DNA of 64,000 bases, from the IMG/VR virus record IMGVR_UViG_3300045988_156843; one strand, given 5' to 3'. The notes under the pieces are model-generated. The model did not search any database, was not told where the DNA came from, and saw nothing but the letters and a program-made list of their open reading frames with translations. The translations under genes were made by a program, and so were the position numbers. Within the stretch, counting starts at the first letter, position 1. The number at the start of each line of letters is the position of its first letter. The stretch comes from a virus. Positions 11,798 to 59,965 of the stretch are shown here, piece by piece.

Positions 11798-13744
11798 ATG
11801 GAAATAATCAAAGACATAGCAGCTACGCAAGAAGTTGAATGGGGCACTCTAGCAGATGCAATTGATAGGAATTTCAATGAAGCATCTACAGGAATTCAAA
11901 CAGTTGCTCAGAAGGTGGATCTTCTTGACATGGCTTCTCCAAACTATTGTGTGGGAGAATGGCAAAATGGAGAATTAAGTCCTACATCAGTTAATACGAT
12001 TGGTGATACAAGTATACTTGACAAATGGGATTTCTATCTAATAGATACTACAGACAATACAGGTGAGACTAATCATCCTGTAGGAAAATTGAAAAGAAAC
12101 AATCTTCTTCGATTTGTAGACGGTAGTTTTGCTCCTGTTATTGGAATCACAGAAGCTATGAGAGCCGAATGTGATGTTGAACTGTATTTAGATAATACCC
12201 AAACAAATAAATACTGTGATGCAGGGGCATTTGATGCAGAAGCATTCTATAATCAATATGGGATGACGCAGAAACTCTACAATGCGACAGGTGAAGAAGT
12301 TCGTATTTTACGACCTTATGAGACCACTGAAACTAAATATACAATAGGTTTAGGAAGAGCAGATAAGATTTATCTATTAGATAACGTTGTCGGAAAAAGT
12401 GGGAAAAGATGGAAAGGGATATTTGCAAGTCCGACAACATGGGATGGAATAGATACAACTCTTTGGGGGCTTGATCCGACTGCCATATCTCCTTGTCCTG
12501 TATGCACTATTGGCAATAAGACACGTTCTTTCTTTTATGTATATGAAGGTGAATCTAATTGTAAATCTTCAAATGGTATAAATAATCGTTGTACGATGTT
12601 TAGTAACGGAAGAACATATCCAAGAGTTAATGATATGAATCAAGTCAACGACATGACGTGGAGTCGTGCAAATAATGCAGATCCCGATGCACCTTATCCT
12701 TTTGCAGAAGGAGGATATCATGCGTTGAATACTTTCATCAATTGTTTGGAAATTCGTTATGGAACTAAATATCTACACAAGGAATCATTATTTTCCGGTG
12801 GTATTTGTTCTAATGATTCTGTAAGCGAAGCAGGATGGACAAAGACGGGAGGCATTCGTTACAAAAAGACGGCAGATAGCACATGGAAATACGCTAATTG
12901 GAATACGACTCCATCGGATATGTTCTATAATGCTAGTGGGGGTAAGACTAATATGAATGAATTCCTAAGTAATTATTGTCCTAAAGAACAATGTATGGAG
13001 AGTCAAATGGCAGCATCGTTTGCCGTTGAGACTGGAGTGCAGGAAGGTGAAGAATTTGAATTCTATGGAGCTACCTATTATTACCGCAATATAGTGGATA
13101 CAAAAGGATTAGCTGATGGAGAAATGAATGTAAAGGTATATAAGAAGATGTCTCAAACATTTAATGCATATGACGAGTTGGGTGCAGAAACATCTTTTGA
13201 TGTAGAAGTAATCTTGCGTATGGCTTTATATGCAGGTGCTAATTTATCCGGTGATGTATTTGCTTACTGCGGAGGAGGATATGAACAGGTTGGAACATGT
13301 GTGAATGCTGCTTCAGCATCTGTTAACAATCCAGTTGATATTTATTTGGAACCGGATCAAAAAAAATGGTTGAAAGAAACAAGTGTAACTAAAACCAATC
13401 TTGGTACTTTTGATTTTGAAAAATCCTATATGAAATTAGGCAGTAGTACAAACTTGGGAGATAGTTACGCAAAAGAGCGAGAAAATTATGCTGCATGGAA
13501 GACTGCAAAAGGCGGTAGTCTGTCAACTGGAGAATGTTATTATGCTTGGGATAACAATTATTGGAGTAGTACAGCTATGCAGCGTGTTAGAATTGCGGCT
13601 CGGTTTCGTGGTCATGCTTATTCTGCTGTTTGCTCGCCTCGTAATTTGTATGCGCATTACGCTGCTTCTAATGCGACTCGTAACATTGCCGGGTTTGCCC
13701 AAGTTAGGATATCAGTAAACGCAGTTCCGATGCAATCGGAATAA
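11798..13744 (+). CDS. DGR target protein (tail fibre / receptor-binding candidate) with C-terminal variable region
   Basis: 648 aa. The last ~50 codons are the VR copy of the TR, and the C-terminus ...CSPRN...GFAQV is consistent with CLec-fold DGR targets. Confidence 0.85.
   Translation: MEIIKDIAATQEVEWGTLADAIDRNFNEASTGIQTVAQKVDLLDMASPNYCVGEWQNGELSPTSVNTIGDTSILDKWDFYLIDTTDNTGETNHPVGKLKRNNLLRFVDGSFAPVIGITEAMRAECDVELYLDNTQTNKYCDAGAFDAEAFYNQYGMTQKLYNATGEEVRILRPYETTETKYTIGLGRADKIYLLDNVVGKSGKRWKGIFASPTTWDGIDTTLWGLDPTAISPCPVCTIGNKTRSFFYVYEGESNCKSSNGINNRCTMFSNGRTYPRVNDMNQVNDMTWSRANNADPDAPYPFAEGGYHALNTFINCLEIRYGTKYLHKESLFSGGICSNDSVSEAGWTKTGGIRYKKTADSTWKYANWNTTPSDMFYNASGGKTNMNEFLSNYCPKEQCMESQMAASFAVETGVQEGEEFEFYGATYYYRNIVDTKGLADGEMNVKVYKKMSQTFNAYDELGAETSFDVEVILRMALYAGANLSGDVFAYCGGGYEQVGTCVNAASASVNNPVDIYLEPDQKKWLKETSVTKTNLGTFDFEKSYMKLGSSTNLGDSYAKERENYAAWKTAKGGSLSTGECYYAWDNNYWSSTAMQRVRIAARFRGHAYSAVCSPRNLYAHYAASNATRNIAGFAQVRISVNAVPMQSE
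13593..13705 (+). repeat. DGR variable repeat (VR)
   Basis: Aligns to 13848-13960 at a constant offset of 255. There are 12 mismatches in 13593-13703, all at TR adenines, plus 2 A->T at the 3' edge. Confidence 0.9.
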
Positions 13745-13760
13745 AGGGGATGCAATCCCT
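13725..13760 (+). promoter_or_regulatory. twin hairpins just 3' of VR (ttccgat-gca-atcggaa; gggat-gca-atccc)
   Basis: Two adjacent stem-loops share the core gatgcaatc and straddle the stop codon at 13742-13744. They are absent after the TR. Confidence 0.5.
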
Positions 13761-13847
13761 GCAAATCCTATAGACATCTGATAAGTTATGCAATGGGACA
13801 TAACCTCTAAAACAGATTGGATAGGTTGAAATAATGGATAAAGAGTT

Positions 13848-13960
13848 TTGCGGCTCGGTTTCGTGGTAATGCTAATAATGCTAATTGCTCGCCTCGTAAT
13901 TTGAATGCGAATAACGCTGCTTCTAATACGAATCGTAACAATGCCGGGTTTGCCCAAGAA
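13848..13960 (+). repeat. DGR template repeat (TR)
   Basis: Non-coding copy of the VR with 12 AAY codons when read in the VR frame, located 145 nt upstream of the RT ATG. Confidence 0.9.
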
Positions 13961-14104
13961 GGTTCTTTTATTATCGTCAAACTCTTTATTCGTGTCTTGG
14001 AACGACAAATTATTATAAGACAATGTACTTGTGGATACATTTTGTATTTGAGAAGTACGGTAGTGGAAATAAACATTACCTTTTATGCCCAACTTGCTAT
14101 AAAA

Positions 14105-15478
14105 ATGAAAAATAGAATAGTTGACATATTTGATAATATTACAGAAAAGGATGTAAATCTTGCGATTGATCGTGCTATTCATAAACATATGAATAAAAGA
14201 GAAGTCATATCCTTTTTAGACAACAGACCGTCTAATTGCAAACAATTATATTCCGCATTAAAAGATGGATCATACATTAATATATTATCATATAAATATT
14301 TAGAAAAGACAAATAAAAATGGTAAAGACAGGGACATCAGTAGTCCAACATTAGAAACTAGGATATACCAACATTTACTATTAAATTTGTTAGAACCTAC
14401 ATATTATCAGAAAGACAATAATTATGGTTTAAATTGCAAAAAGAAATCCGGTATAACTGCAACTGATAAAAAAAGATCTGTTGTACATAAGATGAAAAAT
14501 ATCTTTTATGATCGATTGGATTTAAGTTATTGTTTAGTGATAGATCAAAGGAAGTGCTACGAACATATTAAGGAGAAATATTTCAGGAAAGCTATAAAGA
14601 AAATAGTTGCTGATAAAAAACTGATAGATTTTGCCGTAAATATATGTTTTGTAAATAATAAACTTCCGATTGGAACGCCAACTTCACCATTTGCTCATCA
14701 TATCTTGATGTTATCTTTTGATTATTTTGCAAAGAGTTTAACAAAAGAATGTGTAAGATACGCTGATGATAACTTTTTAGCTTTTCATACTAAAGAGGAA
14801 GCTCAACAGGCTAAATGGAGAATCAAGAACTTTTGGTGGTATGAATTAGGGATGCGTGCTAAAAGACATACAGTTAAAATACAGCCATTATCTATTCCTT
14901 TAGATTTTTGTGGCTATAAGTATTATAGAAATAACAATTCAAAAACTTCTCATAATAAAGGATATACAAAAATTAGAAAAAGAGTAGCTGACGATGCCAA
15001 ACGCTGCAATAATGATAGAAGTTGGGGATCTTACTTCGGATTATTAAAACATGCAGACACATGGTCATTAATGCGCAAAATAGAAAATAAAATGAGACTT
15101 ACGGAACTTACTAACAAGATCAAGATTGATCGCAAAATGGATGCTAAGAATATCCTTCCTAAAGAATTACTAGGCGAGGTTATATCCATTTATGAATATG
15201 AGATTAGATATGATTCTAAAGGCAATGCCAATTGGATTAAATGTTTAATTGGTATGGATGAAAAGGATGAAGATGGAGAATCTACTGGGAGAACAATCGC
15301 AAGAGAATTTCATGGAAACTTTCAAGGGATCATACAATATATTATCTTGTGCGAAAAGGCTTTTGGAAAGAAACAATTATTACCTTTGGAAGATGTTGAG
15401 ATTGAGAATCAATGTGGATACATATTCAAAGGAAGTACTAATCAATTAGAATATATAAGTAAAGATGAGAACAATTAA
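14105..15478 (+). CDS. DGR reverse transcriptase with C-terminal extension
   Basis: Motifs VIDQRKCYEHI (A), LPIGTPTSP (B), YADD (C) and FCGYKY (E). The track ORF start at 13901 merely translates the TR; the first plausible ATG is at 14105, giving 457 aa. Confidence 0.9.
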   Translation: MKNRIVDIFDNITEKDVNLAIDRAIHKHMNKREVISFLDNRPSNCKQLYSALKDGSYINILSYKYLEKTNKNGKDRDISSPTLETRIYQHLLLNLLEPTYYQKDNNYGLNCKKKSGITATDKKRSVVHKMKNIFYDRLDLSYCLVIDQRKCYEHIKEKYFRKAIKKIVADKKLIDFAVNICFVNNKLPIGTPTSPFAHHILMLSFDYFAKSLTKECVRYADDNFLAFHTKEEAQQAKWRIKNFWWYELGMRAKRHTVKIQPLSIPLDFCGYKYYRNNNSKTSHNKGYTKIRKRVADDAKRCNNDRSWGSYFGLLKHADTWSLMRKIENKMRLTELTNKIKIDRKMDAKNILPKELLGEVISIYEYEIRYDSKGNANWIKCLIGMDEKDEDGESTGRTIAREFHGNFQGIIQYIILCEKAFGKKQLLPLEDVEIENQCGYIFKGSTNQLEYISKDENN

Positions 15479-15866
15479 TTATGTAGCTATTCCGGCTTTT
15501 GAATCGGAAGATATTAATAGAGATAAAACTGAATGGAAAAACGGTCAGTGTATTTCTATAGACGAAGGGAATTTTGTGACTTTATACATTGGTCATCATA
15601 CTGAAGAAACGATAACTCTTGAGAATGGTTCTGAATATACTCCCATGAAAGCATTTCCTATTAGAGTCATGAAACCAGTAAACAGGGATATGGCTATTAA
15701 CGCAGCAGAGATGGAAGCTTATTGCCTTAATTCTGCAATGGAAGTAGCTAGCTTTTCTGCTTCAATGGCTCGGAAACATCGTGAGAATCCAAAAGATCAG
15801 GAAGTAAAAGAGCATGATGCATTTATATCTTGGGTGAAAGAAGAATTAACAAAAATAGGATATTAA
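15465..15866 (+). CDS. hypothetical protein translationally coupled to RT (possible DGR accessory)
   Basis: 133-aa ORF overlapping the RT 3' end by 14 nt, with a helical C-terminal half. No Avd signature recognised. Confidence 0.5.
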   Translation: MRTINYVAIPAFESEDINRDKTEWKNGQCISIDEGNFVTLYIGHHTEETITLENGSEYTPMKAFPIRVMKPVNRDMAINAAEMEAYCLNSAMEVASFSASMARKHRENPKDQEVKEHDAFISWVKEELTKIGY

Positions 15867-23500: not shown

Positions 23501-25546
23501 GGTGCAAAAGGCAATACAACAGAAGCTAATTGGGTTAAGACTACTTTATTAAGTGCTCTTAACTACAATAACTATGCACCATCTAAAACCGGATTAGGTG
23601 CTAGTGGCACATGGAATATTAATGTATCAGGATCAGCAGCCTCAGTTGCATGGGTAAATGTTTCCAATAAACCTAATTTTGCAGCAGTTGCAACTTCCGG
23701 TTCATATAATGACTTAACTAATAAACCTACAATTACAAATATAACAGTTGACTCAGCCTTATCGACTACTAGCACTAATCCATTGCAAAATAAAATTATC
23801 ACTACTGCACTAAATGGCAAGCAAGCAAATCTTGTTTCGGGAACAAATATTAAGACTGTAGGAGGACAGAGTCTACTTGGAAGTGGTAATATTGCATTTC
23901 CTACAATAACTGTTGATTCTGCTTTAAGTTCCACTTCAACGAATCCTTTGCAAAACAAGGTAATTAATAGTCAATTTGAATCTGTTACTACAGGAATGCA
24001 GTTAATTATGAATTTATACAATGAGATTAAAACAAGTGCTTTAACCTCTTCTAGTGTTGTTACGTCTATTACTACAGAAAATAGTGATAGTACATCACTA
24101 GTAACATCTGTTAAATCCGTTGTTAGCTATATAAGTGATAATTTAATTGATCCTATAACTCCTATACTTACGGCTTATCTAACTCAAAATACCAAAAATG
24201 GTATGTTGATTTTGGATTCAAATGGTAAAGTTCCTAGCAATTTATTGCCGGGCACATTGTTAACATTAGGAACAACATCTACTACGGCTTTTAGAGGTGA
24301 TTATGGTAACATCTTATTTACTAACTTTGGATCGGGAACAAATCTAACAGGTACTCAGCGTGCTAGAAACTTCTTTGGAAAAATTGATGTTTCTAATTTA
24401 CATTTCTTATCAGGTGGTTATACTTGGACACAAACAGATTCAGAAATAGAAATAGAATTTGAACAATATAATTTTACTGGTACTAAAAGTACATCCTCTC
24501 CTTTGATTAATTTCCCAATAGCTACAACAGCGAAAGCCGGACTACTTGGAGGAGATCAATGCTCTTATTTAGTTTCTCTTAATACCGAATACAATAATAT
24601 AGCAAATAAAGCAAATTATATAAAGGCTAGAAAGTTTTTTGGTAGCATAAATACCTCTACTGAATATTATTTAACTTCAGCTATAACTTTAAGTACTGAT
24701 GCAAATGTGATCGATATTGAGTTTCCTAAACATAATTTTGATGGAAGCAATGAAGAATATGAATATATCACTCTTCCTGCTGTTACATTAAATAACGCAG
24801 GAATATTAACATCTACCCAATTTACTAATTTATCAAATAAACAGGAGAAATTAGTTTCCGGCACAAGTATCAAAACCATCAATGGGCAATCATTATTGGG
24901 AAGTGGTAATATTAATATTTCAGGTGGGGGATTGAACTCATATACAACTACTCTTGATATTTTTAATATATCAAATGGTCGAACTATTACTTCTACAGAA
25001 TTTGCAGAAGTAGGAAGAATTGTGACGGCTGTAAGAGAAGGAAAACAAATATTATATAACTATCAGGTGGCTGAATTTGGTACAGGAGTATTAAACTGCC
25101 ATTTAGCGGATGATTTAACTTGTCTATCATGGGTAGTTACAAGTTATACTGATACTGAAATATTCTATATCGATCCAACATTATCTACTGATAAATGGGC
25201 AAGAATATCATTAGTAAAATCAGATTTTTCAAATATAACTTCCAAATCCTTCGGCTCCTCATCAAGTTACTACAAGCTTCCGGATGGGTTGCTGATTCAG
25301 TGGGGGTATAGCACTAATTCAGGTATAGGCAAAGTGATATATTATCCAATATCCTTTTTTAATACTTATTACTCTGTGCATTTAACTGGAACTAGATCTG
25401 TACACAGTAATTACATATATTCTTTTGATATATATACTAAAAGTGTAAGCTCTTTCACAATGGATTCCGTTTATCAGAACGTTGATTCAGATGCCGGAGG
25501 ATTTAGCATAGCTTTTTACTGGTTTGCTATTGGTAGATGGAAGTAA
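20579..25546 (+). CDS. tail fibre protein with switchable C-terminal tip
   Basis: 1655 aa with a Gly7 linker and at least 6 copies of the VDSALSTTS.NP.QNKVIT motif. The C-terminal ~80 aa begin at the LPDGLLIQWG boundary inside inverted repeat IR-L. Confidence 0.8.
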   Translation: MADIPGTNVASMITPFTTQDIIATHSETYGQGGYRSEKTVADMNAIIASRRKEGMIVHVLDEDKDYILKDGKFVVKTSEVIVDSALSTTSLNPVQNKVITNALDSKQNSLVSGTSIKTINSVSLLGSGNINIPVITVDSATSSTSTNPLQNRVITASITDINTKLTPISTAWNKKNTANGFLVLDTAGLVPSSNLPSYVDDVLDVYATYDQSATGTISNVKLYTDSSKTIAVVPETGKIYIDVSSGKPPYQFRWSGTAYVTLNTGGLIIGTISGTAFDGGKGQELYSEYAGSRKTIYQRAYSFFNAITPASDKFMQNISASYTATAISLTKAYKNFAGTSSSESLTINAATTSNAGVMSAADKTKLDSYQASTGATPNSIAKRDENGDLTMRYPITNAGVDNSSSIDYVVYISNSATKFMRHCSLSHFTDVMRLVTTTSRGLMSPADKKKLEDIDTEKFLRKDIDDIANGNITFNNGIYVKGSYANLQSIFEQGGNSILEQGENGIIETAETQAAPTDITLADLANVDGTVNEPAYKRMILTKLAGATTWTQEYIDPLIEITEAPSNNLYYARRNKAWVNFTPFSGNYSDLSGKPTIPTKLANPYALTFSGAVTATYDGSGAVNVNIPVGGGGGGGSVIVDSSLSTTSVNPVQNRVITNAINNANSSIQTNADNIEAIMAIIANIPSISIDTALSTTSTNAVQNKVITAALNSKQNTLVSGTNIKTINSQSIVGSGNVNLTYSFSQITSKPTTLSGYGISDAYTMTQVNNAFVSLSGNVIRTSGKLSMAADVFADDGSTGGLDMRNSNIVGVNGIYFKDASDSDGEYINFYRDSTHVDSLYALNGELRFKPNRVLGAITTASNIILHTGNYTSYVPTKTGTGATGTWAISITGTAELSKATNLINGSYTGSGGKQPPSYIPSGKIRFNMMNTVVGTDSNYKDFILMDSYTGNDVPYVTAIGVRKTSTPEAYIMSGAKGNTTEANWVKTTLLSALNYNNYAPSKTGLGASGTWNINVSGSAASVAWVNVSNKPNFAAVATSGSYNDLTNKPTITNITVDSALSTTSTNPLQNKIITTALNGKQANLVSGTNIKTVGGQSLLGSGNIAFPTITVDSALSSTSTNPLQNKVINSQFESVTTGMQLIMNLYNEIKTSALTSSSVVTSITTENSDSTSLVTSVKSVVSYISDNLIDPITPILTAYLTQNTKNGMLILDSNGKVPSNLLPGTLLTLGTTSTTAFRGDYGNILFTNFGSGTNLTGTQRARNFFGKIDVSNLHFLSGGYTWTQTDSEIEIEFEQYNFTGTKSTSSPLINFPIATTAKAGLLGGDQCSYLVSLNTEYNNIANKANYIKARKFFGSINTSTEYYLTSAITLSTDANVIDIEFPKHNFDGSNEEYEYITLPAVTLNNAGILTSTQFTNLSNKQEKLVSGTSIKTINGQSLLGSGNINISGGGLNSYTTTLDIFNISNGRTITSTEFAEVGRIVTAVREGKQILYNYQVAEFGTGVLNCHLADDLTCLSWVVTSYTDTEIFYIDPTLSTDKWARISLVKSDFSNITSKSFGSSSSYYKLPDGLLIQWGYSTNSGIGKVIYYPISFFNTYYSVHLTGTRSVHSNYIYSFDIYTKSVSSFTMDSVYQNVDSDAGGFSIAFYWFAIGRWK
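25235..25306 (+). repeat. IR-L of candidate invertible segment
   Basis: Perfect 72-bp reverse complement of 25790-25861, checked base by base. Encodes ...ITSKSFGSSSSYYKLPDGLLIQWG. Confidence 0.95.
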
Positions 25547-25789
25547 TTATTTCCAATTACCTATAGCTAACCATGTGAAATTCCATGCTGTTTCATTAAC
25601 ATTGCCGCCTTGTGCTATATATCTAGTTAAAACAGAAAACGAAGAACCTGATCTAGAGTAAAACATAGGAGAATATACGATTTTTTCCGTTTGATTAACA
25701 GCTTCTCCCGTGAATTGTATAGTATAATATGCAGTTTTAAAAGTAGTAGGCATATATATAGTTTTAATACCTGCTCCACCTGCAATTGT
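25547..25789 (-). other. silent alternative tail-fibre tip cassette (80 codons + stop, no own ATG)
   Basis: The minus-strand reading frame continues in phase out of IR-R (LIQWG|TIAGG...WLAIGNWK). It shares anchor residues with the expressed tip (TG, SSF, W.AIG.WK). Confidence 0.8.
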
Positions 25790-25861
25790 CCCCCACTGAA
25801 TCAGCAACCCATCCGGAAGCTTGTAGTAACTTGATGAGGAGCCGAAGGATTTGGAAGTTAT
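25790..25861 (-). repeat. IR-R of candidate invertible segment
   Basis: Perfect 72-bp inverted copy of 25235-25306. Confidence 0.95.
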
Positions 25862-25896
25862 GAATTAAAATAGTATTTTTACAAAAAATATGAGAA

Positions 25897-42860: not shown

Positions 42861-43153
42861 ACCTTTATTAGTTTTAATGCTTCTTGTATTCCAATTTCTA
42901 ATGCTTCTTCGTAGGTGTCCCATTGACCACCATCGTTAGGACTGTCAAATATCCCATCGGTTATATGAGTGCCATTATCAGCTTTGCATATATCATATCC
43001 ATAACCGCAAGCGTTTCTAATGATGGAAATATGTAGGTTCTTGGTTTCACGTAGCCACTTTTGAGCAACAGACTGAGTAGGGAAATGATAACAACTGAAT
43101 CCTTTCTCTGTCAGCGACTTTAAAGTATCCAATGTTACAAATTTTTCATCCAT
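42857..43153 (-). CDS. hypothetical protein
   Basis: 98-aa co-oriented ORF. Confidence 0.5.
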   Translation of the reverse strand: MDEKFVTLDTLKSLTEKGFSCYHFPTQSVAQKWLRETKNLHISIIRNACGYGYDICKADNGTHITDGIFDSPNDGGQWDTYEEALEIGIQEALKLIKV

Positions 43154-43155
43154 AA

Positions 43156-43509
43156 TTATTTCTGCTTTTTAAGTTCTTTCAATACTTTCTTCGCTATCTC
43201 ATAACCATTCAATGGCCAACTGGTATAAACATCATCTGTGTGTTCATCGTAATGGTTGGCGTATACGTATTCCTTCAAGTTTTCACGAAAGGATTCACCG
43301 TCTAAACCTTCATCATCACAATCATCGTACATTCTCAATTTATGAGCTACCTCCTCACATTCTCGATGTGTAACAAAGTCATATACGATCCTGTCATAGA
43401 CATTTGTCTGACGAACATACTTTTGTCCCGGCTGTATCTTGCAACCACAGAAATCACATATGTGTTCTTTTTGGGCTGTTGGGTAAGTTACTTTTAGTAT
43501 TGTTGGCAT
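43156..43509 (-). CDS. Cys/His-containing protein, paralog of 58508..58861
   Basis: 117 aa. The C-terminal half is identical in protein and DNA to the right-arm copy, while the N-terminal halves have diverged. Confidence 0.6.
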   Translation of the reverse strand: MPTILKVTYPTAQKEHICDFCGCKIQPGQKYVRQTNVYDRIVYDFVTHRECEEVAHKLRMYDDCDDEGLDGESFRENLKEYVYANHYDEHTDDVYTSWPLNGYEIAKKVLKELKKQK

Positions 43510-43511
43510 AG

Positions 43512-43727
43512 TTATTTATCATCTTTAGTTATCTCCTTATATAAATTCCATAATTCCTGTTCGGTATAATCTTCACAAGAAATATCAAGTCTCCACGTCC
43601 ATCTATCATCAAATCCACCTGTATAATATCCAAGTCCCATTCTACTTATTTTATTAAGTAGTTTTAAAGGTGGTGTAGTACCACCGAGCAAGTTGCACAA
43701 ATCTTCTTTATTAAGTTCTACTATCAT
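43512..43727 (-). CDS. hypothetical protein, related to C-terminus of 59965..60312
   Basis: Shared pattern GLGYYTGGFDDRWTWRL...EQELWNLY versus LGYYVGGFNEEWRWLL...EEELWHLY. Confidence 0.55.
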   Translation of the reverse strand: MIVELNKEDLCNLLGGTTPPLKLLNKISRMGLGYYTGGFDDRWTWRLDISCEDYTEQELWNLYKEITKDDK

Positions 43728-43729
43728 AG

Positions 43730-43930
43730 TTATTTCTCTTTCTTTAATTCTTCACAATGCAACTTATAAGCATAGGCAAACATCTTCAAAGTAACAGGCT
43801 CAAAGTGAAAATCTGCTTGTTTACCTTCTACTACAACAGAAACACATAAATCTCCATCACAAAAATCAATATATGCCATAGCATTGTCATTCCCTTTGAT
43901 AGAAAAGGTTTGTGTCTGTATACTATCCAT
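43730..43930 (-). CDS. hypothetical protein
   Basis: 66-aa co-oriented ORF. Confidence 0.5.
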   Translation of the reverse strand: MDSIQTQTFSIKGNDNAMAYIDFCDGDLCVSVVVEGKQADFHFEPVTLKMFAYAYKLHCEELKKEK

Positions 43931-44159
43931 GATTCACCTCCTTTTCTAATATTCGTTGCAATGGATCAAAACTCTCATTTACTTGTTGTATTCCATCTAT
44001 AGCATCTCTTATATTGGCACATTGCAAACTACTTAAAGCATTTGTCATTCTAAACGCAGGATTTACCATACAAATACCAGTAAGAGCATCAATCAACTGT
44101 TCTTTGCTTAGTTGTTTTAACTGATCCTTAATTGTATTTCGCATTTCTTCTTCACTCAT
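43923..44159 (-). CDS. hypothetical protein
   Basis: 78-aa co-oriented ORF. Confidence 0.5.
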   Translation of the reverse strand: MSEEEMRNTIKDQLKQLSKEQLIDALTGICMVNPAFRMTNALSSLQCANIRDAIDGIQQVNESFDPLQRILEKEVNHG

Positions 44160-44161
44160 TG

Positions 44162-44623
44162 CTATTCCTTTCCTTTAAAGTGTTCGATTAGCTCTTCAAC
44201 GGTTGCCTTGTGCGAGGGGATACCCATAGAATCAAACTTATTCTTAGGAATTTTCCATTTATCCATACAGCATTTTAGGAGTGCTCCCTTCTCTATTATA
44301 GTATCAGGATAGTTAATACTTCCAAGCCTTACTTCTGTCACAAAGAACTGTTCTTTATCAGTATCATCCCTCAATGCAGCAAGAGCTAGAAACAAATCCT
44401 CGTTGGTTCCACAGTCAATACGTCCGGCACAGTCGTAAGTCCTGTAAGGATCTTTATCATCAAACAGAGTAGCAGGAATAGAGTGATAATTCTCCAAATT
44501 TGAAGCGGTAGATAAGCATTCTCCATCTTCGATAGATAATAAAGGTTTATATCCCAACGCTTCCAATCTCTTCCGAAGCTCCAGTGTATTCTTTCTTATA
44601 AAACATGATGTGGTAAATCCCAT
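44162..44623 (-). CDS. hypothetical protein, paralog of 59307..59765
   Basis: Both begin MGFTT.CFIRKNT.ELRK.LE.LGY and end EELIEHFKGKE. Confidence 0.55.
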   Translation of the reverse strand: MGFTTSCFIRKNTLELRKRLEALGYKPLLSIEDGECLSTASNLENYHSIPATLFDDKDPYRTYDCAGRIDCGTNEDLFLALAALRDDTDKEQFFVTEVRLGSINYPDTIIEKGALLKCCMDKWKIPKNKFDSMGIPSHKATVEELIEHFKGKE

Positions 44624-44625
44624 AG

Positions 44626-44817
44626 TTAGTCTTCCTCCAATTTCTCTAAAAGCTCTTTTGCTCGTATTTTACAATACAGGATATTATCAATTATCATACC
44701 ATCCATGCTTATATCTGCATGAAAACTCTTTATCGTTACCCATCCGTACCATTTTTTAACCTGTACGTCAAATATATGATCTAGCAAACCATATATATTT
44801 ATTCTGTATTTTTTCAT
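44626..44817 (-). CDS. hypothetical protein
   Basis: 63-aa co-oriented ORF. Confidence 0.5.
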   Translation of the reverse strand: MKKYRINIYGLLDHIFDVQVKKWYGWVTIKSFHADISMDGMIIDNILYCKIRAKELLEKLEED

Positions 44818-57133: not shown

Positions 57134-57418
57134 ATGAAAAAGAAAGTAATTGTAAGAGGAGATCGTTCCGGTGTGTTTTTCGGAGAGTTAGTAGAAAGAA
57201 ATGGTAGAGAAGTTAAGCTCGAAAATTGTCGTAGACTATGGTATTGGGATGGTGCAGCTAGTATATCTCAATTAGCAATTAATGGTACGACGAATCCATG
57301 TGAGTGTAAATTCACAGTAACGGTTCCAGAGATAGAGATTCTGGATGCAATTGAGATTATTCCGTGCTCGAAGGAAGCTATTAAATCAATAGAAAGTGTA
57401 GCGGTATGGGCAAGGTGA
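57134..57418 (+). CDS. hypothetical protein
   Basis: 94-aa ORF. Confidence 0.55.
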   Translation: MKKKVIVRGDRSGVFFGELVERNGREVKLENCRRLWYWDGAASISQLAINGTTNPCECKFTVTVPEIEILDAIEIIPCSKEAIKSIESVAVWAR

Positions 57419-58089
57419 TGGAAGATAAAATAAAACAGTTTCTAAATACTGGCGATGGCTCTGGCGATGGCGATGGCTCTGGCGATGGCTATGGCTCTGG
57501 CGATGGCTATGGCGATGGCTATGGCGATGGCTATGGCTCTGGCTATGGCTCTGGCGATGGCTATGGCTCTGGCTATGGCTCTGGCGATGGCTATGGCTCT
57601 GGCGATGGCTCTGGCTATGGCTATGGCGATGGCTATGGCGTAAAATCTGTAAATGGGAATACTATTTATATAGTAGATAATATACCTACTATAATTACAA
57701 ATGTAAAAGGTAACATCGCAAAAGGATTTATCTTCCAGTCCGACTTATCTCTTACTCCTTGTTTTATAGTAAAAGGAAATAATCAGTTTTCTCATGGTAG
57801 TACTCTGCACGAGGCATTTGAATCTTTGCAAGAAAAGCTTTATGATGATAGTACAGAAGAGGAAAGAATTGATAAGTTCAAAGAGAATTTTTCTGACTTT
57901 TCTAAAAAGTATTCCGCTAAGGAATTATTTGTATGGCATCATATACTTACCGGAAGTTGTAAGGCTGGAAGAGAATCTTTTTGTAGAGACAAAGGTATAG
58001 ATGTAGATAATGATAAGTTTACCGTCTATGAGTTTATTGAACTAACTAAAAATTCATATGGCGGTGAGGTTATCCGCAAATTATCTTGA
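57418..58089 (+). CDS. protein with N-terminal Gly-Asp/Tyr/Ser dipeptide-repeat tract
   Basis: MEDKIKQFLNT, then about 63 residues of G[DYS] repeats, then a globular ~150-aa domain. The ATG at 57418 overlaps the upstream stop (TGATG). Confidence 0.6.
   Translation: MEDKIKQFLNTGDGSGDGDGSGDGYGSGDGYGDGYGDGYGSGYGSGDGYGSGYGSGDGYGSGDGSGYGYGDGYGVKSVNGNTIYIVDNIPTIITNVKGNIAKGFIFQSDLSLTPCFIVKGNNQFSHGSTLHEAFESLQEKLYDDSTEEERIDKFKENFSDFSKKYSAKELFVWHHILTGSCKAGRESFCRDKGIDVDNDKFTVYEFIELTKNSYGGEVIRKLS
57451..57640 (+). repeat. 190-bp hexanucleotide-type tandem repeat (ggcgat/ggctat/ggctct units)
   Basis: Read directly from the sequence. A single codon is used for each residue type throughout (GGC, GAT, TAT, TCT). 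Confidence 0.9.
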
Positions 58090-58202: not shown

Positions 58203-58505
58203 ATGAAAGCAAGAGTAAAAGCAACTGGAGAAATTATCAATATTGCTGATTACGCACGTGTCACACTTGATAAGTGTGATAGTTACGGTAGTCCTATTGA
58301 ATTAAGTTTTGATGAGGTTGAAATACTTCAAGAAAGGTCTGATAATATTGATTGGGAACAGAGACGCTATGAAATAGCTAAAGAGGTTTTATCCGGAATA
58401 CTAATTTGGATAGCTTATTCCGGAGAAGATTCATATTGTACAGAGAATTGTAAACATGCTGTTAAATATGCAGATGAATTGGTTAGACAACTTAAAGGAG
58501 AATAA
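58203..58505 (+). CDS. hypothetical protein
   Basis: 100-aa ORF. Confidence 0.5.
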   Translation: MKARVKATGEIINIADYARVTLDKCDSYGSPIELSFDEVEILQERSDNIDWEQRRYEIAKEVLSGILIWIAYSGEDSYCTENCKHAVKYADELVRQLKGE

Positions 58506-58507
58506 CT

Positions 58508-58861
58508 ATGCTAACAGTACTAAGAGAAACTTATCCAACAGCAAGAAAAGAACATGTGTGTGAGTTTTGTGGTGAAAAGATAGCGATAGGACAAAAATAT
58601 GTCCGTCAGACAACTATCTATGATGGAACTATCTATGACTTTGCCATACATCAAGAATGTAATGAGGTAGCTTATGAATTGAATATGTACGATGATTGTG
58701 ATGATGAAGGTTTAGACGGTGAATCCTTTCGTGAAAACTTGAAGGAATACGTATACGCCAACCATTACGATGAACACACAGATGATGTTTATACCAGTTG
58801 GCCATTGAATGGTTATGAGATAGCGAAGAAAGTATTGAAAGAACTTAAAATGGAGAAATAA
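58508..58861 (+). CDS. Cys/His-containing protein, paralog of 43156..43509
   Basis: 117 aa. Positions 58685-58850 are 100% identical to the reverse complement of 43166-43331. Confidence 0.6.
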   Translation: MLTVLRETYPTARKEHVCEFCGEKIAIGQKYVRQTTIYDGTIYDFAIHQECNEVAYELNMYDDCDDEGLDGESFRENLKEYVYANHYDEHTDDVYTSWPLNGYEIAKKVLKELKMEK

Positions 58862-58863
58862 CA

Positions 58864-59304
58864 ATGACATCAAAACAAGTATTATCAATAGACCAAATGA
58901 AACATTTGCAGGAACTTGGATTAGATACGAGTAATGCAACCTTAACTTGGGTATTATACCCTGCTAGTATAAAAGGAGATGTAATACCAACGTTGGAAAT
59001 GTGGCGTTGGGAACAAATAAAAGATGAACAAAGGAAAGTCTGTGTGCCAGCATTTACCTTGCAAGACATTCTCGACAAATTACCGAAAAGAATAGGTGAA
59101 TTTGAATTGAGAATAAAAATGTTTGCGTTTGATTATTCAGTATATACTGAATATAAATGGTCTATTATATATGAATCTACTGACATGAGTAGTTATTTAG
59201 AAACTTTACTCCAAAGCAGTTACCCAGATTTGATTGAGGCGGCATATAATATGTTGCGTATGTGCATTGAATACGGATATATTAAAGAACTTAAAAACGA
59301 ATAA
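58864..59304 (+). CDS. hypothetical protein
   Basis: 146-aa ORF. Confidence 0.5.
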   Translation: MTSKQVLSIDQMKHLQELGLDTSNATLTWVLYPASIKGDVIPTLEMWRWEQIKDEQRKVCVPAFTLQDILDKLPKRIGEFELRIKMFAFDYSVYTEYKWSIIYESTDMSSYLETLLQSSYPDLIEAAYNMLRMCIEYGYIKELKNE

Positions 59305-59306
59305 CT

Positions 59307-59765
59307 ATGGGATTTACAACACCGTGTTTTATACGCAAAAACACACCGGAGCTTCGGAAGAAGTTGGAGGAGTTGGGATATATAAAAAATTCCCCAATAT
59401 GGACGGATAATTGCAGTATAATATGGGCTTATCAATATCCAGAAAAAGGATTCGATACTCCTAATTATGTAATTGCAGATTCTTTTGATATTCCTTTTGA
59501 TAAACATAGTCTCTTATGTGGAAAATTTATTGATTGCGGAGCCAACGAGGATTTATTCCTTGCCATTGCCGCATTGAGAGACGATACTGACGATAATCAA
59601 CTATTTATTAATGACAAAGGAGATTGGGGGATATGGCGTGATAATACAAAATACGATGGATTATCGGGCATAGACTTTTACGGAATGCCTAACGACCTTA
59701 ATGTGGACAATTATCATAAGACTACCACAGAAGAGCTAATCGAACACTTTAAAGGAAAGGAATAA
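59307..59765 (+). CDS. hypothetical protein, paralog of 44162..44623
   Basis: Shared N- and C-termini with the paralog (MGFTT.CFIRKNT..., ...EELIEHFKGKE). Confidence 0.55.
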   Translation: MGFTTPCFIRKNTPELRKKLEELGYIKNSPIWTDNCSIIWAYQYPEKGFDTPNYVIADSFDIPFDKHSLLCGKFIDCGANEDLFLAIAALRDDTDDNQLFINDKGDWGIWRDNTKYDGLSGIDFYGMPNDLNVDNYHKTTTEELIEHFKGKE

Positions 59766-59767
59766 TA

Positions 59768-59965
59768 ATGAATAAAATAGCCAATAAAATAAAACAAGCT
59801 AGAAAAGAACGATGCTTAACACGAGCTTCTTTAGCTTTGCTATCAGGAGTAAATATTAGAGTTATAATGAAAATAGAAGAAGGTAGAGATTGCAGTACTC
59901 GGTCACTGAATAAAGTTCTAGCTGCGTTAGGCATGGAATTGGCTGTTAAAACAAAAGAGGAATAA
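59768..59965 (+). CDS. XRE-family HTH transcriptional regulator
   Basis: IKQARKERCLTRASLALLSGVNIRVIMKIEEGR fits the Cro/C1-type HTH pattern. Confidence 0.6.
   Translation: MNKIANKIKQARKERCLTRASLALLSGVNIRVIMKIEEGRDCSTRSLNKVLAALGMELAVKTKEE

Follow-up and report, generated by a model that had tools for sequence, protein, structure and literature searches.

A naturally active DGR without Avd in a phage of gut Bacteroidales: the clade-specific C-terminal domain of its RT and its conserved spacer RNA

Based on the natural variation and on the comparative RNA and protein evidence presented here, we describe a bona fide DGR that is active in natural gut phage populations and whose carrier, a ~84-kb phage of gut Bacteroidales, has no Avd in its whole genome. 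We put at about even the chance that the active, Avd-independent RNP of this element consists of the RT with its C-terminal domain and of the RNA encoded between TR and RT, with the small gene downstream of the RT (ORF133) standing outside it. By analogy with the Bordetella element, the C-terminal domain and the spacer RNA may together do what pentameric Avd does there, namely scaffold the RNP and serve in priming. All coordinates refer to the window, i.e. the whole stretch of 64,000 nucleotides (64 kb) that was analysed.

An active DGR without Avd

The target side of the locus comprises the following features:

11798-15478, + strand: the DGR locus
11798..13744, + strand: target gene, an ORF of 648 aa of tail-fibre / receptor-binding type with the VR at its 3' end
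13593-13703, + strand: VR, 111 nt, aligned with the TR
13688-13703, + strand: IMH-like GC-rich end of the VR, 16 nt, GCCGGGTTTGCCCAAG, with the same letters in the TR
13725-13741 and 13746-13760, + strand: twin short hairpins just 3' of the VR, both with GCA triloops (DNA fold)
13848-13958, + strand: TR, 111 nt with 27 adenines, aligned with the VR

TR and VR differ at 12 positions, every one of them (12/12) an adenine in the TR that is another nucleotide in the VR. Fifteen near-identical phages carry 14 distinct VRs against 4 TR variants, and 169/176 of their VR-TR mismatches fall on TR adenines; the sister lineage, represented by 41 csAssE-Sib-like loci, has 39 distinct VRs, with 532 of 562 mismatches at TR adenines after one fixed IMH difference had been taken out. 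The element thus combines TR/VR differences confined to adenines, a diversifying VR beside a stable TR, and an adjacent DGR-type RT. The target protein found no match in the Pfam, PHROG and NCBIfam scans; its homologues lie 5' of nearly every related RT, and the one in csAssE-Sib is deposited as a 'putative tail fiber protein' with VR and IMH features annotated. The first of the twin hairpins overlaps the last codons of the target gene. Both are also found in relatives, the RT-less locus L154 included, with different compensating stems, and by comparison with the post-IMH hairpin of Bordetella they are probably a target-site recognition structure. The locus had no match in a Megablast search of 50,697 phage records; the RT is 100% identical to that of an Odoribacter MAG, and its family is spread over many Bacteroidales genera.

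An earlier note, made from the letters of this DNA alone, had reported no Avd-size gene between VR and TR, and the scans bear this out. The target stop codon lies just 103 nt before the TR, which leaves no room for Avd between VR and TR. Scans for Avd (PF05635 / TIGR02436-type) were negative both for the window, with 96 ORFs of 75-220 aa, and for the ~23 kb beyond it, with 36 ORFs taken from a near-identical complete phage genome; accessory-type domains are likewise missing from the window and from the rest of the phage genome. The note had allowed for an Avd elsewhere, next to a second TR/VR: no such Avd was found, and the window holds a single TR/VR pair. Its statement that the TR-RT spacer (13959-14104) has no credible ORF is also correct, the frames there being TR read-through (the ORF starting at 13901 is the TR itself, translated in the frame of the RT) and antisense ORFs with no family match. 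A reversed avd (architecture B3) was considered in the antisense ORFs, 158 and 89 aa long, that cover TR and spacer, and was rejected, since these ORFs lack family matches and have inconsistent frames and lengths; they are absent in two related loci, L037 and L067. The 9-11-bp tetraloop stem that directly follows the TR in 207/278 Avd-containing DGRs does not appear in the fold of the window's spacer.

The same note had called this architecture atypical, which is not the case, since DGRs with the order target-TR-RT and no Avd, as well as RTs extended at the C-terminus, have already been described. DGRs without accessory genes make up 29% of those surveyed by Wu et al. 2018 (PMC5758913), who define architecture A1 as TR-RT, recognise an RT 'lineage 3' without avd and report post-thumb extensions, up to ~150 aa long, in ~20% of DGR RTs; the phages LMMB and csAssE-Sib have the same TG-VR-TR-RT layout. 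The present layout fits A1 in having target, TR and RT in this order on one strand and in lacking the accessory genes compared, which were avd, HRDC and MSL. CH1, an acidic accessory (160-169 aa, pI 4.7) of Bacteroides lineage 3a (Wu et al., PMC5758913), was considered as a possible counterpart of ORF133. Avd-less lineages had been recognised, and an Avd-independent mechanism proposed, earlier (PMC5758913, PMC7290462).

The extra RT domain and the structured RNA between TR and RT

The remaining parts of the element are:

13990..14098, + strand: conserved structured spacer RNA (MFE folds, RNAalifold, covariance model)
13993-14007, + strand: P1, 4 bp with a 7-nt loop (RNAalifold, covariation)
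14017-14022, + strand: invariant single-stranded AAGACA
14025-14058, + strand: P2, with arms gtactt/aagtac at 14025-14030 / 14053-14058
14059-14080, + strand: P3
14085-14097, + strand: tail AUGCCCAACUUGC (GCCC..CUUG)
14105..15088, + strand: RT core, residues 1-328, with fingers, palm and thumb (RVT_1, phrog_1423, bRT alignment)
14669-14689, + strand: RT motif 4, IGTPTSP
15089..15478, + strand: clade-specific RT C-terminal domain, residues ~329-457 (homologues, AlphaFold model)

The RT starts with the ATG at 14105, not 14106, and its 457 codons end before a stop at 15476-15478. It matches Pfam RVT_1 and phrog_1423 and has YADD at residue 219, and positions 3-328 of the family profile align with residues 4-322 of the 328-aa Bordetella bRT (8ub7_A). 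In motif 4, the nearly invariant I189-G190 is the hydrophobic [I/V/L]G of the signature [I/V/L]GxxxSQ (the equivalent of bRT I181), while the terminal Q is replaced by a P that is invariant in 60 family members. The terminal Q helps to recognise DGR RTs and is not required for function, since a Q187P bRT retains its adenine misincorporation frequency (PMC7826257); on the functional hallmarks given above we file the element as a DGR despite its SP. RT-motif filters that demand 'SQ' would miss this active clade.

The C-terminal extension announced by the earlier note (~125 residues) is real: profile alignment places ~129 residues past the end of bRT, and these form an extra domain. The note had also suggested a survey of related phage DGRs, and the domain proved to be present in every relative, that is, in all related loci and in 120/120 RT homologues among the matches listed, with 95-100% coverage. 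It is more conserved than the RT core in 11/15 distinct divergent comparisons and, as judged from these alignments, is at least as conserved as the core overall. Among 1.84 billion representatives it occurs only at RT C-termini or in fragments. The AlphaFold model shows an independently folded unit (core pLDDT 85-91) with three long beta-strands, one helix and one further strand. No four-helix-bundle protomer is present in this model, Foldseek found no significant match in the PDB (the OB/SSB-like hits are weak and non-significant, with E at least 0.14), and neither Pfam, PHROG nor NCBIfam contains a matching family. The profile and structure check for Avd was therefore negative, the domain being unlike Avd in sequence (hhalign probability of 1.3% against BPP-1 Avd), in predicted fold and in charge. 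Avd is strongly basic, with a mean pI of ~9.5 (Wu et al. 2018, PMC5758913), whereas the domain is acidic (pI 5.03), which argues against non-specific nucleic-acid binding of the Avd kind. It is nonetheless a candidate for a functional substitute of Avd.

The 146-nt spacer between TR and RT encodes a structured RNA whose support is comparative, the fold of the window's spacer alone being thermodynamically unexceptional (z = -0.66). P2 and P3 appear at equivalent positions in independent MFE folds of divergent homologues, and the curated arms pair at 99-100% within a sequence versus 58-75% between sequences. Since variable loop lengths misalign P2 and P3, RNAalifold on MAFFT alignments recovered P1 alone, and a covariance model (R1) was used to recover the other two helices. 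R1 matches in 37/57 sources, each time directly 5' of the RT, and finds no match in about 17 RT-bearing loci, which are the more divergent ones. In its alignment 98.5% of cells are paired, versus 69.7% in shuffles, and 16/17 pairs have changes on both sides (compensatory covariation), counts that are somewhat inflated because the alignment is fitted to the structure. No Rfam family matches this RNA. A UGUCUU/AAGACA pairing present in the window's MFE was discarded, as it is not conserved, while P1 covaries. The nested hairpin that had been put forward as part of a self-priming RNA corresponds to P2; it does belong to a conserved covarying RNA, and its part in priming is presumptive.

In the mechanism that we propose, TR and spacer would be transcribed together and the spacer would fold into P1, the single-stranded AAGACA, P2, P3 and the GCCC..CUUG tail. 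The RT would bind this RNA, copy the TR and misincorporate opposite its adenines, and the resulting cDNA would replace the VR in the tail-fibre gene, at its 3' end, with the IMH-like end and the twin GCA-loop hairpins after the VR as the probable guides. A bolder version, which we hold only tentatively, is that the C-terminal domain and the three-helix RNA with its invariant AAGACA form a self-contained, single-protein priming RNP; this would be an Avd-independent and mechanistically distinct class of reverse transcription in DGRs, with a domain fold not represented in the PDB.

The downstream gene and the competing explanations

One further gene follows the RT:

15465..15866, + strand: ORF133, an ORF of 133 aa with a 14-nt overlap with the RT stop

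The overlap is exactly as the earlier note had described it; the replacement of Avd by this ORF, which the note had also considered, does not hold up, as ORF133 dissociates from the RT in both directions and is unlike Avd in sequence, fold and charge. Homologues lie 3' of the RT in 28/30 viral loci found through ORF133 itself, and wherever both genes occur ORF133 comes immediately after the RT, often overlapping it. The RT with its extension occurs without ORF133 in ~54 viral loci and in 14/29 informative species-level genome loci, the downstream genes being heterogeneous in such cases, and the complete csAssE-Sib genome has no homologue. Conversely, three independent lineages without the RT have ORF133 directly behind the fibre gene. 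Locus L031 is L028 (98% identity) without a 1.64-kb TR-RT cassette and keeps ORF133, and L039 and the prophages L154/155 have the order fibre, ORF133, holin, with no RT. ORF133 is thus the usual downstream neighbour of the tail-fibre gene, and it is between these genes that the TR-RT cassette lies.

The ORF133 model (pLDDT 92.9) has five strands and three helices, with no four-helix-bundle protomer, and the protein is acidic (pI 5.10). No match was found in Pfam, PHROG or NCBIfam, nor any significant one in the PDB with Foldseek; in BFVD only uncharacterised small phage proteins were hit (E at least 3e-3), and the hhalign probability against BPP-1 Avd is 0.2%. In some homologues a DUF4376 or CBM_5_12 domain is attached (in L056, DUF4376 is a C-terminal fusion, E 2.8e-5). 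The window's own ORF133 lacks the DUF4376 domain in Pfam and is therefore not filed as a DUF4376 chaperone, although it probably works together with such a chaperone or in a similar way. ORF133 is not a DGR component. From its position and the fusions of its homologues, it is probably a tail-fibre-associated, chaperone-like protein, so that an unrelated function, for which the note had allowed, is probable; it may in addition have a facultative modulatory role on the DGR.

Among the competing explanations, the most serious is that the RT core and the spacer RNA suffice for priming, the C-terminal domain serving instead in oligomerisation, in the recruitment of host factors for cDNA integration or in regulation of the RT. 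The acidic character of the domain, unlike that of Avd, and the lack of a nucleic-acid-binding fold match are consistent with this, as is the Avd-less LMMB, whose different ~90-aa tail means that no single type of extension is required. However, the domain is strongly and universally conserved, is fused to one RT clade only and co-occurs with a clade-specific RNA. Such conservation and co-occurrence do not identify what the domain does and weaken this explanation by parsimony only, so that we regard it as rather unlikely, with appreciable weight left to it. It is quite improbable that an Avd of the canonical kind, too divergent to be recognised, or a counterpart encoded by the host works in trans. 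Avd genes are poorly conserved, and profile scans, of limited reach and here covering the phage genome, could miss a factor of the host or an Avd that has diverged strongly; yet there was no match in the small ORFs of the full ~84-kb phage genome, the genome-wide Avd profile search of Wu et al. in hosts of Avd-less DGRs also found none (PMC5758913), and the stem-loop for Avd binding that is typical of DGRs with Avd is missing from the spacer. Since the family occurs in many Bacteroidales genera, reliance on one host factor is also less likely.

ORF133 as an accessory translationally coupled to the RT and replacing Avd is very improbable. The 14-nt overlap, the position directly 3' of the RT where both occur, the 28/30 viral loci found through ORF133 in which homologues follow the RT and a size similar to that of Avd speak in its favour, but ORF133 is absent beside clearly active DGR RTs and from the csAssE-Sib genome, is kept after the fibre gene where the RT is missing, has homologues fused to CBM_5_12 and to DUF4376 of the tail-fibre-chaperone type, and is an acidic protein of mixed beta/alpha structure. 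Moreover, an unrelated ORF overlaps the brt stop in BPP-1, so that such an overlap is not diagnostic. The double dissociation of ORF133 and RT largely refutes this explanation, and more generally a gene overlapping an RT stop should not be called an accessory without comparative evidence.

To our knowledge, mechanistic and structural work on DGRs has all been done on the Avd-dependent Bordetella element. How cDNA priming is achieved and controlled in Avd-less DGRs, about one quarter of all, is a question that has stood since 2018, and the present RT family offers a test system for it, with one protein bearing a clade-specific domain, one covarying RNA of ~110 nt, natural activity and many variants. 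A single-protein DGR is attractive for engineered in vivo hypermutation, and the proposed RNP, if real, would be a minimal two-component (one protein, one RNA) tool for targeted mutagenesis.

Comparison with known systems

The BPP-1 DGR (mtd - avd - TR - brt; bRT-Avd-RNA RNP, PDB 8ub7 series) shares with the present element adenine-specific TR/VR mutagenesis, a tail receptor-binding gene with the VR at its 3' end, an RT core collinear with bRT, a structured spacer RNA 3' of the TR and a hairpin after the VR. In contrast to BPP-1, the window has neither Avd nor an Avd-binding stem-loop, its RT is 129 aa longer and motif 4 ends in SP instead of SQ; the covariance model did not detect the P1/AAGACA/P2/P3 RNA in BPP-1. 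The small unrelated ORF that overlaps the brt stop in BPP-1 is bbp4. By gene order, the window resembles the A1 / lineage 3 DGRs of Wu et al. 2018. The crAssphage LMMB (MT006214; PMC7290462), also a gut Bacteroidales phage with a tail-fibre target, has the order TG-VR(IMH)-TR(IMH*)-RT on one strand without avd, and its RT is longer than bRT. This RT, the only one of lineage 3 that was compared, is 25-26% identical and aligns over the core alone; unlike the window's IGTPTSP it keeps the canonical IGNYLSQ, its ~90-aa tail is not alignable with the window's extension, and the spacer-RNA model has no match in LMMB.

ORF133 resembles the tail-fibre chaperones of which DUF4376 is the mark (Alteromonas phages V22 gp27 and A5 gp9) in being a small gene immediately 3' of a tail-fibre gene, while no sequence or fold relation to the solved chaperones is detectable. 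The phage csAssE-Sib (GenBank OR575929.1) differs in its ~151 kb genome and in having no ORF133 homologue. Its RT belongs to the same family (57% identity, extension included), its tail-fibre target is homologous, its depositors annotate VR, IMH, TR, IMH* and RT, and the covariance model finds the spacer RNA in L067, the equivalent locus in IMG/VR.

Anatomy and natural activity of the DGR

We have established here the anatomy of a DGR and its activity in natural populations, where it works although no Avd, the usual accessory protein, can be recognised. It lies in a phage genome segment of low GC content (~33% in the window) and comprises the following features:

11798..13744, + strand: target ORF of tail-fibre type, 648 aa, with a 111-nt repeat at its end
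13593-13703, + strand: variable repeat (VR), 111 nt
13725-13741 and 13746-13760: twin hairpins with GCA triloops, right after VR, the first overlapping the final target codons
13848-13958, + strand: template repeat (TR), 111 nt, where the repeat recurs
14105 (ATG) to 15478, + strand: RT, 457 aa
15465..15866, + strand: ORF133, 133 aa, overlapping the RT stop by 14 nt

VR and TR, the only such pair in the window, differ at 12 positions, and in 12/12 a TR adenine is replaced in VR. Fifteen phages with 98-100% identical RTs carry 14 distinct VRs and 4 TRs, with 169 of 176 VR/TR differences at TR adenines (one VR with an indel left out). In relatives, among them RT-less prophages (L154), the twin hairpins persist while their stems vary by compensating changes; they probably have a role in target recognition.

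Residues 71-243 of the RT correspond to Pfam RVT_1 and residues 1-347 to phrog_1423. Since no stop codon interrupts the RT frame across the A-rich TR, some automatic gene callers report an RT of 525 aa (window 13901-15478; L001:6437-8014 in a related locus); the ORF starting at 13901 is a mere in-frame translation of TR and spacer into RT, and the longer call is an annotation artefact. In contrast to the DGR signature [I/V/L]GxxxSQ, motif 4 reads IGTPTSP (14669-14689, residues 189-195) and is nearly invariant in 60 family members; in bRT, the RT of Bordetella phage BPP-1, the substitution Q187P is functionally neutral (PMC7826257). DGR finders demanding 'SQ' would overlook this active clade.

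The earlier note had reported no Avd-size gene between VR and TR, and this holds: only 103 nt separate the target stop from TR. The profile check was run on the window and on the rest of the genome. All 96 window ORFs that are 75-220 aa long were scanned against Pfam and NCBIfam; none showed an Avd-type family, nor was an Avd present among 36 small ORFs of the remaining ~23 kb, which were taken from a near-identical IMG/VR contig (the window represents about 61 kb of a ~84-kb genome). Avd is absent from the phage genome. Antisense ORFs over TR and spacer, considered as Avd candidates, are inconsistent or absent among relatives and match no family.

The RT C-terminal domain and the spacer RNA

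A protein search with the RT yielded 465 relatives; among the best 120 of these, nearly all are 440-475 aa long, with 95-100% query coverage and 51-68% identity. Positions 3-328 of the family profile align to residues 4-322 of the 328-aa bRT (PDB 8ub7_A), so that about 129 RT residues extend past the end of the prototype enzyme. The extension proposed in the earlier note is thus real, and a survey of viral contigs and Bacteroidales genomes (Odoribacter, with a 100% identical RT, Bacteroides, Parabacteroides, Phocaeicola, Alistipes and Prevotellaceae) found it in every complete RT of the related loci examined; it is universal in the family. In 11 of 15 distinct divergent comparisons its conservation exceeds that of the core. 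A search of 1.84 billion representative proteins with the extension alone gave 92 matches; those of full length bear it C-terminally in proteins of ~445-475 aa, and almost all of the others are short fragments. Its AlphaFold model (core pLDDT 85-91) has three long beta-strands, a helix and one more strand, with no significant PDB match by Foldseek. All this marks the extension as a genuine domain that defines the clade and does not resemble Avd: it is universal, folded and acidic (pI 5.0), with an hhalign probability of 1.3% against BPP-1 Avd.

The TR-RT spacer contains these elements:

13993-14007: P1, 4-bp stem with a 7-nt loop, loop consensus YNGGARY
14017-14022: nearly invariant AAGACA within a single-stranded stretch
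14025-14058: P2
14059-14080: P3
14085-14097: conserved tail AUGCCCRRCUUG

The hairpin that the earlier note had placed at 14025-14058 proves to be helix P2 of a larger RNA, for which comparative analysis indicates a conserved structure. When 19 divergent homologues are folded independently (MFE), P2 and P3 come out at matching positions though their sequences differ, and RNAalifold recovers P1 with covariation from a plain MAFFT alignment. In curated arms, pairing is 99-100% within one sequence and 58-75% between sequences. A three-seed covariance model detected the RNA in 37 of 57 sources, in each case on the strand of RT and immediately before it, and never in RT-less loci, crAssphage LMMB (MT006214) or BPP-1. 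In the model alignment 98.5% of cells are paired, compared with 69.7% in shuffles and 29-51% with partners slid, both sides change in 16 of 17 pairs, and double changes occur in 167 cells against 43.6 in shuffles; these figures are somewhat flattering, as the alignment was fitted to the model. The support is comparative, since the fold energy of the single sequence does not stand out (z = -0.66). No Rfam family matches the RNA.

The spacer RNA of the Bordetella RNP supplies the adenosine used for priming, a single-stranded 'thumb ring', a stem with a heptaloop cap that binds bRT, and an Avd-binding stem-loop, the last located directly after TR in 207 of 278 Avd-containing DGRs. In contrast, no stem of the Avd-binding type follows TR here, which fits the missing Avd.

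The architecture as such, which the earlier note had called atypical, is already known from several precedents. According to Wu et al. 2018 (PMC5758913), accessory genes are absent in 29% of DGRs (architecture A; A1 = TR-RT), post-thumb extensions of up to ~150 aa occur in ~20% of DGR RTs, and lineage 3 lacks avd, with sub-lineage 3A only in Bacteroides and relatives; their profile search of genomes with avd-less DGRs did not detect avd at other sites, and an Avd-independent mechanism was proposed. LMMB has the order TG-VR(IMH)-TR(IMH*)-RT without avd (PMC7290462), and the phage csAssE-Sib (GenBank OR575929.1) has annotated DGR features and an RT of the present family. The LMMB RT is only ~25% identical to ours and keeps SQ, and its tail does not align with the extension; it would therefore seem that Avd-less RTs differ in the C-terminal domains they have acquired. 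In the literature that could be searched, no description exists of this C-terminal domain, the IGTPTSP motif or the covarying spacer RNA.

ORF133 and the rival explanations

ORF133 has 19 homologues by single-sequence search and 218 by profile search. Its predicted structure of five strands with three helices (pLDDT 92.9) has no match in the PDB and only weak ones in BFVD, to uncharacterised small phage proteins; with a pI of 5.1 and an hhalign probability of 0.2% against Avd, it is not Avd-like. ORF133 dissociates from RT in both directions. Phage L031 is 98% identical to L028 minus a 1.64-kb TR and RT segment (L031:5938-5956 vs L028:4300-5937, the junction overlapping by 19 nt), so that ORF133 directly follows the fibre gene; the TR-RT cassette behaves as a discrete unit, losable or gainable between the two. 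RT is likewise absent from L039, where a fibre homologue precedes an ORF133 homologue, and from prophages L154 and L155, which have a 1133-aa fibre, ORF133 and a holin in succession and keep VR-like sequence and the post-VR hairpins. In L005, ORF133 is intact beside an N-terminally truncated RT. Conversely, RT with the extension occurs without ORF133 within ~4 kb in about 54 csAssE-Sib-like viral loci and in 14 of 29 informative species-level genome loci; no homologue was found in the complete csAssE-Sib genome, and the genes downstream of RT in such loci are heterogeneous. These csAssE-Sib-like DGRs are active, with 39 distinct VRs in 41 loci and 532 of 562 VR differences at TR adenines (one fixed IMH difference removed).

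Proteins of 260-290 aa in several lineages have ORF133 as their N-terminal module, combined with CBM_5_12 or DUF4376; DUF4376 forms the C-terminus of tail-fibre chaperones that have been studied experimentally and whose genes lie just behind the fibre gene (PMC7289586, PMC10579305). Nor is the overlap with the RT stop unusual, because in BPP-1 the unrelated small ORF bbp4 (L153:1527-1775) overlaps the stop of brt (L153:1756-2742) by 20 nt. On the grounds of the double dissociation, the fusions and bbp4 we assign ORF133 to the tail-fibre gene, with the TR-RT cassette lying between the two.

The earlier note described the size and overlap of ORF133 correctly, but the double dissociation makes a role as DGR accessory factor very improbable. 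Of the two candidates of the note only the extension is retained, as part of a putative scaffold: we infer, with about even confidence, that the C-terminal domain and the spacer RNA jointly would scaffold cis-primed reverse transcription, as Avd does in Bordetella. The main rival, that the RT core and the RNA are enough and the domain has another role, is kept alive by the acidic charge of the domain, and we consider it rather unlikely. That a cryptic or host Avd acts instead is highly doubtful. How DGRs function independently of Avd can be studied well in this RT family.

Other features of the phage and its relatives

The RT remnant in L005 (L005:7001-7984, 327 aa) starts at the equivalent of residue ~129, is open through the C-terminal domain and lies between lysis genes and the ORF133 homologue; neither TR/VR nor target was detected nearby. 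In the window, a 102-nt inverted repeat (25205-25306 and 25790-25891; 88% complementary, 483 nt apart) is found at the 3' end of a 1655-aa tail-fibre ORF with a C-terminal Gp53-like_C domain and, as it faces a short antisense ORF (25550..25807), may be an alternative or invertible fibre C-terminus. Two inverted blocks about 15 kb apart and 83-87% similar (43151-44631, - genes; 58501-59776, + genes) duplicate 117-aa and ~152-aa ORFs on opposite strands. Within ORF 57406..58089, a tandem array (57419-57675; 12/18-nt spacing; GGC GAT / GGC TCT / GGC TAT) encodes Gly-Asp/Ser/Tyr repeats. Outside the window, a 176-aa protein of the phage genome (L159:19940-20467) has relatives in 76 viral contigs (L174-L249); many of these are ~83-85-kb genomes not among the RT or ORF133 matches listed, and the DGR may therefore be present in only part of the phage group.
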